This document shows, piece after piece, positions 7,242 to 60,540 of a DNA stretch of 64,000 bases. The notes under the pieces are model-generated. The model saw nothing but the letters and a program-made list of their open reading frames with translations, ran no database searches and was not told the origin of the DNA. Source of the stretch: Candidatus Kerfeldbacteria bacterium (GTDB taxonomy: Bacteria > Patescibacteriota > Patescibacteriia > UBA9570 > XYC2-FULL-38-9); contig JBDRKW010000020.1 of assembly GCA_043813585.1 (NCBI GenBank), positions 1,185 to 65,184 on the forward strand, in the 5' to 3' direction. The translations under genes and the position numbers were made by a program. The number at the start of each line of letters is the position of its first letter. Positions within the stretch are counted from its first letter, which is position 1.

Positions 7242-9285
7242 CCGCTCCATAGGAAGCGTTGTTGCTGTATGCATTTGTGCAGCAGCATTTTTTGGAATGA
7301 GCGCTTTTCCGGCTGCTGCTGCGCGGCCTGATGATGCGCCGAAAATCGTGAACTGGAATTTTTCCTGGGGGGTTGAATCCAAGGAGCAAGCCGAAGAGCT
7401 GGCGCAGTGGGACGTTTTGATTATTGATATTGAAGCTGCGCTCTATACGCCGAAGCGGCTGGAATACATCAAAGAGCTGAATCCAAATATCAAGCTGCTC
7501 GCGTATGTTTCCATATCGGATATCCGCAAGGACGCGCACACGCTGGACGCGGGAACATCTCGACGGTACCTCGGAACCATTCTCCAGGAGCACCCTGACT
7601 GGATCCTGCGCGACACCGGCGGCAACCCGGTGGAGTGGTGGCCTGGCAATTACATCTGCAACCTCTCCAACAAGGCGCCTGTGCATGACGGCGCCAGGAT
7701 CAATGACATCTTTGCGCGGTTTGTCCGCGACTGGGTCATAAAGGAAAAAATCTGGGACGGCGTGTTTATTGACAACCTCTATGAAGGCATCTCGTTTGCG
7801 GGCGCGCAAATAGACCTGGACCAGGACGGCGTGGCAGAGTCGGCAGCCGACGTGAACGCGAAATGGCGAAAAGGCGTGCGCTCGTCACTCAAGCAGATAA
7901 AAACCTACGCGCGCAACAACCGGAAGAAGTTCATCATCACCGGAAATGGCGGTGCATTGTATGACGAGCAGGTTAATGGCATCGGGCTGGAACATTTTCC
8001 AAAAACCACCTACGGCAAATGGACGAAATCCATGAAGAAATATTACTTCATCATGGAAAATGGCGTGCCGGCCCAGTACGCGTTCATCAACACAAACTCA
8101 AGTAACAAAGACGGTAGGACGCAGTACAAGAAATTCCGCTACGGACTGATGTCGTCGCTTCTTAACGACGGGTATTACAGTTTTGACAAAGGCGACCTAA
8201 GCCACGCGGAACAGTGGTGGTACGATGAATACGAAGTGTCGCTCGGCGACCCGGTCAGCGGCGCGTATAACCTGCTGCGGCCGGATGACCCGACTGCGCT
8301 GCGCAAAGGGGTGTGGCGGCGCGATTTTGAAAACGCAAGCGTGTTTGTGAACTCAACAAGCGAGAAGCAGACGATTACGCTGAACATGGGGTATGAGAAA
8401 ATCCACGGAACCCAGGCGGTAGATGTGAACTCCGGCGAAAACGTCGGTAGCATTACGATTAACGCTCATGACGGCATCATACTGCTGCGACGCCTGACGC
8501 AGGTGCGCGACGCAACGTTCATAAACGGCGCGTTCTCAAAAGTGTTCGGCTATAAGGGCCGGCAGCAGCGCAACAGCTTCTTTGCATACGACGGAAGTTT
8601 TGCCGGCGGAACGCAGATCCATAAAATTTCGCGCAACGGGAAGACGGTTGTCGCGGACAACACCTGGGTGCGGGTGTACGACAGCCGGAATAACCAGATT
8701 GCCGCCTTTGCGCCGTACGGCGACGGATACGCCGGCGGGGTGAATATCGCCGTGGGCGCGCTGTACGGCGGAAAGAAAAAATATGTCGTAACCGGGAATA
8801 AAACCGGCACAGCGTTTGTGCGCATCTGGGATTTGAAAGGGAACCTGGTCCACAGCGGCTGCGTTCCGTACGGTTCGTTTGCCGGCGGAGTGAATGTGGG
8901 CGTTGGCAACCTCAGCGGCAACAAGCAGCTGGAGATTGTAGTTGCGGCCGGCTATGGCGGCGGTCCGCACATTCGGGTACTGGATAATCATTGCAACCTG
9001 ATCAATCCGGGCTTTTTCGCGTTCCCCAGCGAATGGCGCATTGGCGTGAATATTGCGGTCGGCGACCTGGACGGAAACGGCACGGCTGAAATCATCGCGG
9101 CGCCCGGTCCGGGCGGCGGCCCGCACGTGCGCATCTTCGATAATAACGGGACGCTGTTGTCACCTGGCTTTTTCGCGTATGATGAATCTGACCGGAGCGG
9201 CGTACTCGTGACGACCGCGGATATTGACGGGGACGGGGACGACGAGATCGTGACGAACAGTTTCTCTATCTTTAACCAGCTGTAA
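7204..9285 (+). CDS. secreted protein with a glycoside-hydrolase-like TIM-barrel domain (tentatively GH114/GHL-type) and C-terminal FG-GAP/beta-propeller repeats
   Basis: The start was re-assigned to MKQPR at 7204 (track 7135), giving a signal peptide (..AAFFGMSAFPAAAARP). The C-terminal half has repeated FG-GAP-like units (GDLDGNGTAEIIAAPGPGGGPHVRIFD; GNKQLEIVVAAGYGGGPHIRVLD). The GH assignment of the N-terminal domain is tentative. Confidence 0.55.
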   Translation: MKQPRIAQPRNSNRSIGSVVAVCICAAAFFGMSAFPAAAARPDDAPKIVNWNFSWGVESKEQAEELAQWDVLIIDIEAALYTPKRLEYIKELNPNIKLLAYVSISDIRKDAHTLDAGTSRRYLGTILQEHPDWILRDTGGNPVEWWPGNYICNLSNKAPVHDGARINDIFARFVRDWVIKEKIWDGVFIDNLYEGISFAGAQIDLDQDGVAESAADVNAKWRKGVRSSLKQIKTYARNNRKKFIITGNGGALYDEQVNGIGLEHFPKTTYGKWTKSMKKYYFIMENGVPAQYAFINTNSSNKDGRTQYKKFRYGLMSSLLNDGYYSFDKGDLSHAEQWWYDEYEVSLGDPVSGAYNLLRPDDPTALRKGVWRRDFENASVFVNSTSEKQTITLNMGYEKIHGTQAVDVNSGENVGSITINAHDGIILLRRLTQVRDATFINGAFSKVFGYKGRQQRNSFFAYDGSFAGGTQIHKISRNGKTVVADNTWVRVYDSRNNQIAAFAPYGDGYAGGVNIAVGALYGGKKKYVVTGNKTGTAFVRIWDLKGNLVHSGCVPYGSFAGGVNVGVGNLSGNKQLEIVVAAGYGGGPHIRVLDNHCNLINPGFFAFPSEWRIGVNIAVGDLDGNGTAEIIAAPGPGGGPHVRIFDNNGTLLSPGFFAYDESDRSGVLVTTADIDGDGDDEIVTNSFSIFNQL

Positions 9286-11142: not shown

Positions 11143-11172
11143 AATACCGCTAATATTAGCGGTATTTTTAAT
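11143..11172 (+). terminator. rho-independent terminator after the surface protein gene
   Basis: A perfect 24-nt palindrome AATACCGCTAAT|ATTAGCGGTATT is followed by TTTTAATATTTT. Confidence 0.7.
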
Positions 11173-24778: not shown

Positions 24779-26404
24779 CTAGAGTTTAATGCTGCCGAGC
24801 GCGCTTTTGATTGAGTCGCGCTCCGACTCCTTTTCTTCTTGTTTGCGCGAAACCGGGCCGATCTCTACCGGCTTCTTTTTGGCATCAGAATCTTCCGTAA
24901 ACAACGCCTTGGAAACGCGGCCGTCGCAGTCAGAAGGAACCGGCAGGCCGAACAGGTGAAGGATAATCGGCGTAATGTCCTGCATCTTCAAATTTTTGAC
25001 CTCGGCGTTGGTTTCAAAGTCCGGGCCGTAGGCCATGAACACGCCGTATTTGCCGTGCTTGTTGCTGACCTCTTCGCCAAACAGGGAGCCGGAATGGAAA
25101 TGGCCGGTGAGCCAGTACTGGTCCAGTTCAAAGAAGATATCCGGCGCCTGGTCAGGCGCATCGCCGCCGTACACCTCGTCGCGCGTCATGACCTTTTTCA
25201 CGACAGGAACGCCCTGCGGGTCCTTGAGGTTGCGGAGCTTATCGATAATTTCGGTTCGCAGCGGCAGGTATTCAGCGCTGGAGACCGTACCGTCCGTGTA
25301 GACCCAGTCCTTGTTGATATAGGCATTGGTGATATAGGCGCCTTTCGGAAAGCAAACGTTCGTTTCGTTGAAATCGATGCCCACGTTCACTTTGATATGG
25401 ACGGGGAAGTATTTCTTCACGATATGGTGGTAGCTCCATTTTGCCGCGCGCTCGGCAACGGGAATCTTCGACAGCGCGTTAATGGCTCCGGTCCCGATAT
25501 TCAGCTTCTTCTTTTTTGCGCGCAGCGTGTCTGTTTCTTTTGCGCGCCTCGTCACCGCGCCGCGGAAGTCGTCGCCCTGCTTGTTTGTCTTCAAATAGCC
25601 CTGCTGTTCAAGCCATCGGTTCAAGTAGAAGATCTTATCAAACGCCGCAAATCCGTGGTCGGAGAGTACAATCAGGTTCGCATCTTCGGGAAGGTTATCT
25701 ACAAACCATTTCAGGTGTTCGTCTATCTTTTCAAAGACGCGGCGGGGGGATTCAGCTTGCTGCTCTTCCAGCTCCTTGAACGCCATGTGTGAAATCCAGT
25801 CGGAATGCGAGAAGAGGTAGAAGAAAAAATCCCACGGCTTCTTTTTGAAGATCGCTTTCACTGCCTCGACCTGCTCTTCCATATGGTTCAATAGGTCTTC
25901 CGTATATTCATCCTGCCGCGACGTGATGCGTAGGCTCTCATCCGGCGTGAGCCGCCATTTCTTCAGCTCCGGGAACTCTTCAACGAGCGATGCGGGATAG
26001 ATGAACTGGTCGCCCTGCGTGAGCAAGCTGGTGATGGTCGGCGTATCCTTCAGTTTCGGCGGCCAGGTAGCAGGCAGGTTCAGCAGAATGGACTTGAGCC
26101 CGCGTTCATGCAACAGCTCATAGATCGTCTTATCCTTGATGTCTTTACTCGTCACGAACTTCATGTTGCCGAGCGAATCAGTCGGAAGCATAAAATCAAA
26201 TACGCCGTGCTTGCCCGGATGCTTGCCGGTGGCAAAGGTCGTCCACGCGGTCGCGGTCATGTTCGGGATGGTCGATTCCAAATCGCCGGACACGCCCTGC
26301 TCCATGAGCTTTTTCACGGTCGGCATGTATCCCTTGTCTGCAAGCGGCTTCAACAATTTCCATGTGGCGCCGTCAAGGCCAATGGCAACAATTTTCCTGT
26401 TCAT
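24779..26404 (-). CDS. alkaline-phosphatase-superfamily protein, type I phosphodiesterase/nucleotide pyrophosphatase family (paralog of 20314-21714)
   Basis: The N-terminus KIVAIGLDGATWKLL..TIPNMTATAWTTFATGK matches that family. The protein is 541 aa. Confidence 0.65.
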   Translation of the reverse strand: MNRKIVAIGLDGATWKLLKPLADKGYMPTVKKLMEQGVSGDLESTIPNMTATAWTTFATGKHPGKHGVFDFMLPTDSLGNMKFVTSKDIKDKTIYELLHERGLKSILLNLPATWPPKLKDTPTITSLLTQGDQFIYPASLVEEFPELKKWRLTPDESLRITSRQDEYTEDLLNHMEEQVEAVKAIFKKKPWDFFFYLFSHSDWISHMAFKELEEQQAESPRRVFEKIDEHLKWFVDNLPEDANLIVLSDHGFAAFDKIFYLNRWLEQQGYLKTNKQGDDFRGAVTRRAKETDTLRAKKKKLNIGTGAINALSKIPVAERAAKWSYHHIVKKYFPVHIKVNVGIDFNETNVCFPKGAYITNAYINKDWVYTDGTVSSAEYLPLRTEIIDKLRNLKDPQGVPVVKKVMTRDEVYGGDAPDQAPDIFFELDQYWLTGHFHSGSLFGEEVSNKHGKYGVFMAYGPDFETNAEVKNLKMQDITPIILHLFGLPVPSDCDGRVSKALFTEDSDAKKKPVEIGPVSRKQEEKESERDSIKSALGSIKL

Positions 26405-26435
26405 ACTATCAGTTAATGTCCGCTTAACCTCTCCC

Positions 26436-26519
26436 GTGCATTTCCATCGCGTGCTATTCTCGTCTTCGCTCGACGCACGCTACATGGAAATGCACTCGCG
26501 AGGATTCGCGGACAGTATT
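26436..26519. repeat. structured inverted-repeat element, copy 1 (12-bp outer stem, 6-bp inner stem, 20-nt loop, conserved 3' tail)
   Basis: The outer stem is GTGCATTTCCAT...ATGGAAATGCAC. The conserved core is cgcgtgctattctcgtcttcgctcgacgcacgctac, and the tail is tcgcgaggattcgcgga. The same core, with a different but perfectly complementary stem, occurs at about 53803-53885. Confidence 0.7.
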
Positions 26520-26524
26520 TTTTA

Positions 26525-26737
26525 TTAATCAAGGTAACCGAGGTCTTCCAGCCGCTTCTTGACGGCTTCCTCCTGTTCCTTGGTGTAGGTCGGTTCTGCG
26601 GCCGGTTCATTGCCGGTCTGCTTAATGACCTCCTCCAGTACATAGTTCACGTACGCTTCGACAGAATCGAATTCGTCGGATGCGTTGACGCGCTCTTCGA
26701 GTTTCTTTGTAAGGTCGTCGTTCAGGTTAATCTGCAT
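26525..26737 (-). CDS. small ribbon-helix-helix (CopG/Arc-like) DNA-binding protein candidate
   Basis: The protein is 70 aa. Its N-terminus MQINLNDDLTKKLEER fits a beta-strand-helix RHH pattern, and it has an acidic C-terminus. No cognate toxin gene was seen. Confidence 0.4.
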   Translation of the reverse strand: MQINLNDDLTKKLEERVNASDEFDSVEAYVNYVLEEVIKQTGNEPAAEPTYTKEQEEAVKKRLEDLGYLD

Positions 26738-52695: not shown

Positions 52696-52775
52696 TGCAT
52701 CAGGAGCATTGACGAATCACGTGAAATCAATACAATAAGGGCTGGCAATCAGCCCTTATTTTGTAACAATTACAG

Positions 52776-53783
52776 ATGAATATTCTTCTTACAGGCGGAG
52801 CCGGTTTCATGGGTTCCAATATGGTGCATTATTTACTGAGGCAATACCCGGAGTACAAGGTATTGAATTTTGATAAATTGACTTACGCTGGCAATCCGGC
52901 AAATGTGAAGAATATCGAAAAAAACCCCAACTACACCTTTATGCAGGGCGACATCGCAGACGAAGAAGGGGTGAACAAGGCCTTTGAAGAATTCAAGCCT
53001 GATGTGGTCATTAATTATGCGGCAGAAACGCATGTGGATCGTTCCATTCTGGACCCGAAAGCATTCCTGATGACCGATATTATCGGCACGTACACGCTGC
53101 TGGAAGCGATGCGCAAATACGGAACAAAGAAGATGGTGCAGATCTCTACCGACGAGGTGTTCGGGTCAATCGAGGAAGGAGCGTTTACGGAAACAAGTCC
53201 GTTTGAACCGAATAGTCCATACTCAGCGTCCAAAGCAGGAGGAGACCATCTTTGTCGTGCCTATTGGGTGACGTTTGAAACGCCGGTGGTCGTGACGCAC
53301 AGCTGCAACTTTTACGGTCCAAATCAATACCCTGAAAAGCTGATCCCGCTGTTCATCACGAATCTTATAGAGGGCAAGAAAGTTCCGGTATACGCAAAAG
53401 GGGAGAATGTCCGCGAGTGGATCTTTACCGAAGACCATTGCCGCGCGGTCGACCGTATTTTGCACGATGGTAAGCCGGGCGATGTCTACAACATCGGTAC
53501 CGGCAAAGAGCTGACCAATATGGAGATTACAAACATGATTCTGAAGGCGCTTGGTGTTGGTGAAGAGATGATCGAGTACGTTAAAGACCGTCCCGGCCAC
53601 GATTTCCGCTACGCCATCGACTGCAGCAAGCTTACGAATGATCTGGGCTGGAAACCGTCTGTCGAATTTGAAGAAGGCCTGCAGCAGACGATCGACTGGT
53701 ACAAGAACAACGAAGACTGGTGGAAGCCGCTCAAATCCGGCGAGTACATGGAGTACTACAAGAAGCAATACCAAGACCGTTAA
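52776..53783 (+). CDS. rmlB: dTDP-glucose 4,6-dehydratase
   Basis: The protein has GGAGFMGSNMVHYLL and YSASKAGGDHL (the YxxxK of RmlB). It is 335 aa. Confidence 0.85.
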   Translation: MNILLTGGAGFMGSNMVHYLLRQYPEYKVLNFDKLTYAGNPANVKNIEKNPNYTFMQGDIADEEGVNKAFEEFKPDVVINYAAETHVDRSILDPKAFLMTDIIGTYTLLEAMRKYGTKKMVQISTDEVFGSIEEGAFTETSPFEPNSPYSASKAGGDHLCRAYWVTFETPVVVTHSCNFYGPNQYPEKLIPLFITNLIEGKKVPVYAKGENVREWIFTEDHCRAVDRILHDGKPGDVYNIGTGKELTNMEITNMILKALGVGEEMIEYVKDRPGHDFRYAIDCSKLTNDLGWKPSVEFEEGLQQTIDWYKNNEDWWKPLKSGEYMEYYKKQYQDR

Positions 53784-53802
53784 TATTCGTTCGCTTCATC
53801 CC

Positions 53803-53885
53803 TTCAGAATGTTTGCACCGCGTGCTATTCTCGACTCCGCTCGACGCACGCTACGTGCAAACATTCTCGCAGGGATTCGCGAATG
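53803..53885. repeat. structured inverted-repeat element, copy 2
   Basis: The outer stem is GAATGTTTGCAC...GTGCAAACATTC, a different sequence from copy 1 but also perfectly complementary. The core matches copy 1 at 34 of 36 positions. A second long hairpin (CGTATTGCTCG...GAGCAATACG) follows at about 53890-53960. Confidence 0.7.
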
Positions 53886-53978
53886 CCCGTAAGCGTATTG
53901 CTCGTACGAGCGATTGGCCCGCCAGGGTTGTCAGCGAGTGAGCAATACGCGTAGGGCATACGCAACTAACACGATAAT

Positions 53979-54836
53979 ATGATTAAGACTCCAATAGTCA
54001 TAACAGGCGCGAAAGGGATGCTGGGGCAGGATCTGGCACGGGTTTTTGCTGAATTCAGTCCTATTCCGTTGGATCGTGAAGAGTTGGATATTACGGATGC
54101 GGAGGCAGTGAAGAAAAAGTTCGAAGAGTTGAAGCCGGGAACGGTGATCAACGCGGCAGCATATAATGCAGTTGATGAAGCGGAAAATGATGGGGGAAAG
54201 CGGCTGGCAGACCTGGTCAATGCGAACGGACCGAAGAATCTTGCGGAGGCGTGTAAAACAATAGGCGCAACATTCGTGCATTACAGTACGGATTATGTTT
54301 TTGATGGTGAGAACCAGGCAGGATATACGGAAGACGATGAACCAAAGCCTCAAAGTGCCTATGCTTTATCCAAGCGACTTGGAGAAGTGCACGCATTAGA
54401 GACAGAAGGAAATGTGTATATCGTCCGAACTTGTAAGTTATTCGGAAAACCTGGAGTGAGTGAAGCGGCTAAGGAGAGTTTTATTGAGCTGATGCTCCGT
54501 CTGGCACAAGAGAAAGATGAACTGCAAGTGGTTGACGAGGAACTCGCGTCACCGACTTACACGCCAGACCTGGCGCAGCAGACAAAAGTATTACTGGAAG
54601 GGGATTATGAACCAGGGATTTACCATATTACGAACTCCGGTGCCTGCACTTGGTATAGGTTTGCCCAGGAAATATTCGAACAGTCGGGTATCGAGATTAA
54701 ACTTAAGAAAGTTAAAGCAGAGGATTTCCCGAGGCCGGCGGCACGTCCAAAATATTCCATTTTGCTGAATACAAAACTGCCTCGCATGCGTTCATGGGAG
54801 CAGGCATTGGCTGATTATCTTAAGCAGCGCAATTAA
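53979..54836 (+). CDS. rmlD: dTDP-4-dehydrorhamnose reductase
   Basis: The N-terminus is ITGAKGMLGQDL. The protein is 285 aa with a YxxxK motif (YALSKRLGE). Confidence 0.8.
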   Translation: MIKTPIVITGAKGMLGQDLARVFAEFSPIPLDREELDITDAEAVKKKFEELKPGTVINAAAYNAVDEAENDGGKRLADLVNANGPKNLAEACKTIGATFVHYSTDYVFDGENQAGYTEDDEPKPQSAYALSKRLGEVHALETEGNVYIVRTCKLFGKPGVSEAAKESFIELMLRLAQEKDELQVVDEELASPTYTPDLAQQTKVLLEGDYEPGIYHITNSGACTWYRFAQEIFEQSGIEIKLKKVKAEDFPRPAARPKYSILLNTKLPRMRSWEQALADYLKQRN

Positions 54837-60505: not shown

Positions 60506-60510
60506 ACTAA

Positions 60511-60540
60511 AAACCGCGCATCAAGCGCGGTTTTTGAACT
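60511..60540. terminator. bidirectional rho-independent terminator between pyrG and rpmA
   Basis: The sequence is AAAAACCGCGC-atcaa-GCGCGGTTTTT. Confidence 0.75.

Follow-up and report, generated by a model that had tools for sequence, protein, structure and literature searches.

The window analysed here, a 64,000-nt stretch from a Candidatus Kerfeldbacteria MAG (CPR), is taken up by a large cell-envelope polysaccharide and glycosyltransferase cluster, and two of its operon junctions each hold a copy of the same 98-nt hairpin. The first copy, E1, takes up the 120-nt gap that separates a 70-aa RHH-like gene from an alkaline-phosphatase (AP)-family gene, both on the minus strand, leaving 10 nt to the RHH stop codon and 12 nt to the AP start codon. 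The second, E2, starts 4 nt past the stop codon of rmlB on the plus strand, and is followed by another long hairpin, H2, and then by rmlD. These are the neighbours named in the preliminary description of the locus; they are core rml and phospholipid-headgroup genes, syntenic in relatives. With respect to its host operon, E1 is antisense and E2 is sense. The main features are:

26402-26404, minus strand: start codon of the AP-family gene
26417-26514, plus strand: element copy 1 (E1), a 98-nt hairpin, covariance model (CM) score 114 bits
26448-26483, plus strand: 36-nt core of E1
26525-26527, minus strand: stop codon of the RHH gene
53788-53885, plus strand: element copy 2 (E2), a 98-nt hairpin, CM score 120 bits
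53819-53854, plus strand: 36-nt core of E2
53879-53963, no strand assigned: second long hairpin (H2), abutting E2

Many genes of the window overlap or abut, and within these operons no large intercistronic spacers occur apart from the two hairpin insertions. A Shine-Dalgarno-like motif is almost absent from the 25 nt upstream of 47 predicted starts, where the leaders are A/T-rich. Other intergenic gaps carry ordinary short palindromes (11143-11166, 60509-60535, 52734-52760 and 1346-1403), among them a perfect 12+12 palindrome, AATACCGCTAAT/ATTAGCGGTATT; two 11-bp hairpins flanked by A-runs and T-runs look, in contrast to the element, like bidirectional terminators. G+C is about 0.61 at the left of the window and drops to about 0.47 at the right. 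The 0.61 stretch contains long in-frame tandem repeats with a period of 15/18 nt, rich in GAC (Asp), at 590-665 and 1523-1907, and the neighbouring ORF 486-1130 has a MopE-like metal-binding motif; a very acidic repeat protein is probably encoded here. Cumulative GC skew climbs near-monotonically over positions 1-64000, so no origin or terminus lies inside the window.

The 36-nt core, CGCGTGCTATTCTCGNCTNCGCTCGACGCACGCTAC, occurs exactly twice in the 64-kb window, both times on the plus strand and with 34 of 36 positions identical between the copies, as first reported. The 17-nt tail that had also been called conserved is identical at 14 of 17 positions, and homology is present upstream of the core as well (GTYCGCTTNAYCYCT); a repeat finder aligns the two copies over 93 nt (26418-26510 with 53789-53881) at 76% identity, and recognises in E1 a 34+34-nt inverted repeat surrounding the core. 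The range originally given for E1, 26436-26519, marks a real site, but its left edge falls short of the unit, which runs from 26417 to 26514. E1 ends in TGTCCGCTTAACCTC and GAGGATTCGCGGACA, and E2 in CGTTCGCTTCATCCCT and AGGGATTCGCGAATG; these terminal inverted repeats are conserved between the copies, and together with the small size of the unit they are what one looks for in a MITE. The loop region carries the motif CTCGAC-N4-CTCGAC in E2 and CTCGTC-N4-CTCGAC in E1. A covariance model built from the two copies and run with filters off detected no further copy in the 64-kb window, and the variable 12-mers of the stem have only chance-level matches in nearby or target sequence. Coding sequence contains two other matches to the loop motif (40346 and 59906) as well as an inverted repeat at 8706-8775 whose arms are 36 nt apart; all three are attributed to chance.

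That two such similar segments exist at all might be put down to chance or to a recent segmental duplication of which they are the remnant. Beyond their existence nothing speaks for this, and we consider it effectively refuted: no core match is expected in shuffled sequence (100 shuffles), the changes inside the element are concentrated in stems and compensated, and the flanks beyond the 98-nt unit are unrelated between the copies. The extended flanking identity that the preliminary description had named as the mark of a duplication is thus missing; identity stops at the hairpin borders, so the copies are not a segmental duplication.

Both copies adopt the same fold design, on either strand and as RNA or DNA. 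From the outside inwards it consists of stem P1, an internal loop, P2, a small bulge, P3, bulges of 1 nt on one side and 3 nt on the other, P4 and a 20-nt loop. P1 is a 7-bp stem (TGTCCGC/GCGGACA in E1, CGTTCGC/GCGAATG in E2), P2 has 4-6 bp (CCTC/GAGG in E1, ATCCCT/AGGGAT in E2), P3 is perfect in both copies, with 12 bp in E1 and 13 bp in E2, and P4 is the same 6-bp stem, GCGTGC/GCACGC, in each. The individual stems map as follows:

26417-26423, plus strand: 5' arm of E1 P1 (TGTCCGC), pairing with 26508-26514 (GCGGACA)
26436-26447, plus strand: 5' arm of the variable stem P3 of E1 (GTGCATTTCCAT), pairing perfectly with 26484-26495 (ATGGAAATGCAC)
26449-26454 with 26475-26480: P4 of E1, with the 20-nt loop at 26455-26474 and the 3-nt bulge TAC
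53806-53818, plus strand: 5' arm of the variable stem P3 of E2 (AGAATGTTTGCAC), pairing perfectly with 53855-53867
53820-53825 with 53846-53851: P4 of E2, with the 20-nt loop at 53826-53845

Much of this structure had been anticipated: the core, the inner 6-bp stem with its 20-nt loop and the perfect 12-bp repeats were all correctly described, apart from the thirteenth base pair in E2, but the outer stems P1 and P2 were missed, and the 17-nt tail is the 3' half of these two stems. The folding test proposed at the time gives energies of -48.0 and -48.9 kcal/mol on the plus strand and -52.4 and -49.5 kcal/mol on the minus strand, with z-scores of -5.7 to -7.45; a fold this stable was reached in 0 of 200 shuffles. 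An alternative fold is open to the 3' tail of E1 (26496-26524), a small hairpin, TCGCGA-GGAT-TCGCGG, with a T-run after it; this hairpin is terminator-like on the plus strand only, antisense to the operon, and is not conserved in E2.

The maintenance of pairing, on which the preliminary description had built its case, is supported by the pattern of changes. In a two-row alignment of E1 and E2 comprising 72 pair cells, 95.8% of the cells are paired, and eight pairs have changed on both sides yet still pair (six in P3 and two of the 7 in P1), against 0-1 double-changed pairs in controls in which the 3' partners were slid by 1-3 columns. The stem repeats had been said to differ completely, which goes too far, for the 12 pairs of P3 fall into 6 changed on both sides and 6 identical in both copies. 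All but one of the 50 pairs in P1, P3 and P4 are Watson-Crick (49/50); the exception is a single G-T pair, and there is no mismatch. Such a near-absence of non-Watson-Crick pairs would follow from a need for both strands, or the DNA as such, to fold. Divergence between the copies is sharply uneven, affecting 2 of 36 positions in the core (6%), 12 of 38 in the outer stalk (32%) and 12 of 24 in P3 (50%), and the difference between core and stalk is significant (Fisher p = 0.0003). Ordinary MITEs are best conserved at their termini. The pattern here is the reverse, with a near-invariant centre and arms that drift while staying paired.

H2 bears on how this unevenness might have arisen. Its stems, GCG/CGC, ATGCCC/GGGCAT and an 11-bp GCGTATTGCTC/GAGCAATACGC, follow the same layout as those of the element and enclose a centre of exactly 36 nt whose sequence is different. 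The window contains it once, and relatives lack it. A perfect palindrome, ATTCGCGAAT (53872-53881), is common to the 3' end of E2 and to H2. Homology of H2 to the element is not claimed: the weak CM match (E 0.016) derives from the shared palindrome, and Smith-Waterman scores are no higher than shuffles give. One could nevertheless picture a nested origin, in which the 36-nt core is a younger mini-element, or a converted tract, sitting in the apical loop of older and diverged stalks, with H2 as a stalk bearing a different centre. The divergence figures and the matching layout and centre length of H2 are consistent with such a history, but purifying selection on the core gives the same numbers, no homology between H2 and the stalk could be demonstrated, and loop-only and core patterns recover the core in no other context, whether among 596 Gb of genomes or among the metagenomes. 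We therefore regard a nested origin as quite improbable.

The orientation of the copies is independent of host transcription, in keeping with the earlier leaning towards an element acting at the DNA level. The other half of that proposal, independent transcription, fared less well. A small RNA gene of about 100 nt on the plus strand would account for both copies lying on the same strand, and the one terminator-like call in the region, formed by the tail stem of E1 and the T-run that follows it, is indeed on the plus strand, antisense to the operon. E2 lacks a T-run, however, and a promoter scan, which is a weak test, found no promoter-like site on the plus strand upstream of either copy. The hairpin moreover spans the entire intergenic gap, relatives do not carry it and Rfam offers no match to it, which together make a small RNA gene very improbable. 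Nor does the element look like an intrinsic terminator, a candidate we rejected. It shares with terminators a G+C-containing hairpin after a stop codon, but is far longer than the ordinary terminators of the window (e.g. 60509-60535), and neither site has a U-run after the hairpin in the operon direction. No terminator-like site was found in the operon direction after E1, E2 or H2. Without a sense-direction U-run, transcription would be expected to continue through the hairpins, and folding leaves the start codons downstream of them unpaired.

Comparison with relatives points to insertion of the element at both junctions. The nearest sampled relatives share ~62-71% protein identity, and about 206 kb of orthologous loci were compared. 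At the RHH junction, one relative (L011) has an AP-family paralogue 30 nt after the RHH gene and, following that, the closest AP homologue; the RHH-to-AP gap of a second (L012) is 51 nt; and five others (L013-L017) have a different gene directly after RHH, at a gap of 2 nt. At the rml junction, rmlB and rmlD lie 1 nt apart in three relatives (L019-L021) and overlap by 4 nt in a fourth (L022), while in a fifth (L018) two other genes stand between them. The element is absent from the orthologous junctions in all loci compared, the two-copy covariance model has no match in the roughly 206 kb, and the relatives' loci contain no comparable long hairpin. The flanking genes keep their ancestral ends (RLEDLGYLD*, KKQY.DR* and MI.TP.V). 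Because the junctions are tight in relatives, both copies appear to be lineage-specific insertions between intact genes, adding 98 nt and 188 nt. In principle, the relatives being distant (~70%), loss in all of them is possible instead, but this is less parsimonious.

A conserved cis-regulatory RNA, the first of three options in the preliminary description, should occupy an orthologous position in a fixed orientation; the element is absent from the orthologous junctions, lies in opposite orientations with respect to its two operons, and matches no Rfam family, so this option is disfavoured. In a looser version the hairpin, whatever its origin, would act in cis for the host as an RNase III site, as a barrier to 3' exonucleases, or as a device keeping the upstream stop codon near the downstream start codon where Shine-Dalgarno sequences are lacking. 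The hairpin is very stable on both strands, all of its stem changes are compensated, the downstream start codons are unpaired and there is no sense-strand terminator. Tight coupling may matter where, as in this window, genes lack a Shine-Dalgarno motif, and a useless insert of 100-190 nt would be expected to vanish from a compact genome. Against this, the copies are transcribed in opposite senses and the 36-nt module is accordingly read as two different RNAs, so that a sequence-specific RNA function cannot explain conservation of the core in both copies; the absence from every orthologous junction and from Rfam weighs here too. On balance we hold a host-functional RNA hairpin to be unlikely.

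The case for insertion is strengthened by the repeats that border the rml site, which are listed here with a possible counterpart at E1:

53781-53786, plus strand: left direct repeat TAATAT, whose TAA is the rmlB stop codon; preceded by CGT
53975-53980, plus strand: right direct repeat TAATAT, whose last AT opens the rmlD ATG (53979-53981); preceded by CGA
26413-26417, plus strand: possible left target-site repeat TTAAT of E1, with its partner at 26525-26529; weak, in an AT-rich context

A 188-nt block (53787-53974) comprising E2 plus H2 sits between the two TAATAT repeats, and the repeat can be extended to CGNTAATAT, in which 8 of 9 positions match. Removal of the block and one repeat leaves CGT TAA T ATG, the very TAA-T-ATG junction found in one relative (L019), and the predicted empty-site form at rmlB/rmlD is CGTTAATATGATT. 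Six positions of the repeat match though they are not fixed by the stop and start codons, and we estimate the chance of such a repeat at roughly 1 in 100 to 1 in 1000, boundary choice allowed for. TAATAT is AT-rich and nearly palindromic, and brackets E2 plus H2, not E2 alone. As a flanking direct repeat it is convincing, and it makes a candidate target-site duplication. At E1 our own reading is ambiguous, with the right TTAAT lying 11 nt beyond the hairpin and CAGT as an alternative.

The same repeats help to judge whether the element could be of REP type, moved as single-stranded DNA by an HUH/Y1 enzyme (RAYT or IS200-like), with the core hairpin plus GTAG as the recognised unit and strand bias reflecting the direction of replication. 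On the minus strand the core of both copies reads GTA-GCGTGC..GCACGC, which puts GTAG at the 5' foot of the 6-bp stem, and at 36 nt it is within the 20-40 nt range of REPs. REP families are known to comprise subfamilies with complementary stem changes and conserved unpaired motifs, tags or loops (PMC3733652); the element resembles them in being a stem-loop with a conserved loop, compensatory stem variants and GTAG beside the core hairpin on one strand, in its intergenic position downstream of genes, and in the neighbouring inverted hairpin H2, which recalls REP dimers. Cumulative GC skew is monotonic along the stretch, and the two copies point the same way on it. Several points tell against such an enzyme. 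The minus-strand core reads GTAGCGTGC..GCACGCG, where GTA is unpaired but the final G is base-paired, unlike the tag of REPs, which is unpaired; a loop of 20 nt is atypical, being far larger than most REP loops; the whole unit has 98 nt, not 20-40 nt; and, unlike those of REPINs, the arms are not themselves REP palindromes. HUH transposition leaves no target-site duplication, yet TAATAT at the rml insertion appears to be one. There is no RAYT or other Y1 transposase gene in the window, and two copies are too few to judge an orientation bias. Movement by an HUH/Y1 enzyme is, in our estimation, rather unlikely.

Searches of the window and beyond returned no relative of the element. Rfam, comparison with which had been proposed in the preliminary description, gives no match in the window at gathering thresholds, and at E-value thresholds only sub-threshold, miRNA-like hairpin matches at both sites. 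A pattern restricted to the loop, which avoids missing copies whose stems have covaried, matched 7 sites in 596 Gb of species-representative genomes, 0 of them with the element's context. Three of the 7 are Bacteroidota palindromes (L004 4341-4400, L006 3064-3109 and L007 928-947) made of inverted copies of GTCA(G/A)GTCGAGCGNAGTCGAGA, apparently an abundant Bacteroidota repeat; it has 16 nt in common with the E2 loop, with no sign of homology. When the core was used as a pattern with a variable gap, JGI metagenomes gave only 3 chance matches, no copy was found in viral contigs, phage records or plasmid records, and the translation of one frame open across both copies matched nothing among 5.8 billion and 1.84 billion proteins. 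No transposase, RAYT, Y1 or other partner gene, and no integrase, was seen in the 64-kb window (30 ORFs were compared with Pfam, and synteny with relatives covers most others). Limited literature searches found no small interspersed repeats described in CPR/Patescibacteria, and the main text of a 2024 MITE survey of 183,232 genomes does not mention the group. Either the family is confined to a poorly sampled lineage, or its core differs elsewhere.

Among described repeats, the closest parallels are the Correia elements of Neisseria, the enterobacterial ERIC/IRU and the pneumococcal RUP. The element is similar to them in size (about 100-190 nt) and in being a near-complete imperfect palindrome; like them it lies between co-transcribed genes, in either orientation, at an AT-rich target and with a duplication-like repeat at one site, and its expected fate in mRNA is likewise a long double-stranded hairpin. 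For two of these families the consequences have been documented, as RNase III cleavage at Correia hairpins and as effects of ERIC on transcript levels (PMC10969869). The element differs from all three in sharing no sequence similarity with them, in having no parent IS or transposase in the 64-kb window, in being most conserved at its centre, not its termini, and in the two copies seen.

Integron attC sites are also imperfect palindromes of about 60-140 nt, located between genes, with bulged bases and with structure conserved over sequence in part of the stem. Their consensus boxes are R'' (RYYYAAC) and R' (GTTRRRY). This candidate was rejected, as both boxes are absent from the ends of the element, which are TGTCCGC/GCGGACA and CGTTCGC/GCGAATG. 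Further differences from attC are that its centre is conserved, not variable, that it flanks core operon genes and not cassettes, that its orientation relative to the genes differs, and that no integrase was found in the window.

Overall, we believe that the element is best explained as a new family of small, non-autonomous palindromic insertion elements of the MITE/ERIC/Correia/REP kind, co-transcribed within operons, and we put the probability of this reading at roughly 55%. The family has so far been seen only in one Candidatus Kerfeldbacteria lineage, as two copies in one MAG. Its observed support consists of dispersed copies, unrelated flanks, insertion at junctions that relatives keep tight, terminal inverted repeats, a flanking direct repeat, an orientation unrelated to host transcription and maintained pairing. 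Of the options raised in the preliminary description, the REP/MITE-like palindromic unit thus fits best, while the cis-regulatory RNA and the small RNA, for which the promoter scans give no support, are disfavoured.

The general course of events for such an insertion element can be outlined. Copies were inserted close to stop codons, at AT-rich positions in two tightly packed operon junctions. They would have been moved in trans by a transposase or recombinase encoded elsewhere in the genome. What this enzyme recognises would be the invariant 36-nt apical module, the semi-conserved termini (GTYCGC..CCYC and its complement), or the two together. The 6-bp (or 8/9) direct repeat at the rml site speaks for a DDE-type mechanism with staggered cuts. 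Once inserted, the element would be transcribed as part of the operon mRNA and fold at about -48 kcal/mol in either orientation, with the downstream start codon presumably left unpaired. Pairing would be kept either as the folded form is the substrate for mobilisation, or as only strongly self-folding inserts are tolerated. By analogy with Correia and ERIC, RNase III could cut these hairpins and so give the flanking cistrons stabilities independent of each other.

Regardless of how the element moves, the conserved centre calls for an explanation of its own. We know of no MITE or REP described as having a constant head on a stalk of fixed length that covaries freely. The head may be a site for the mobilising enzyme, a site for a host factor, or younger than the stalk, through nested insertion or gene conversion. 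The more specific proposal, that the invariant 36-nt apical module is a sequence-specific recognition site for a putative CPR protein, whether mobilising enzyme or host factor, is a speculative one to which we give rather little credence; on such a reading the element might be a mini-element with the loops of other palindromes as its targets. Even so, the combination of a near-fixed 36-nt head with freely covarying stems suggests a specific binding partner.

Two copies in one MAG are a lead and not a general result. If the insertion-element reading holds, the element would serve as a marker for strain typing and for dating insertions. The genomes of CPR/Patescibacteria are tiny and tightly packed, and a self-folding insert placed exactly between translationally coupled genes, leaving them intact, would show how these genomes tolerate mobile DNA.
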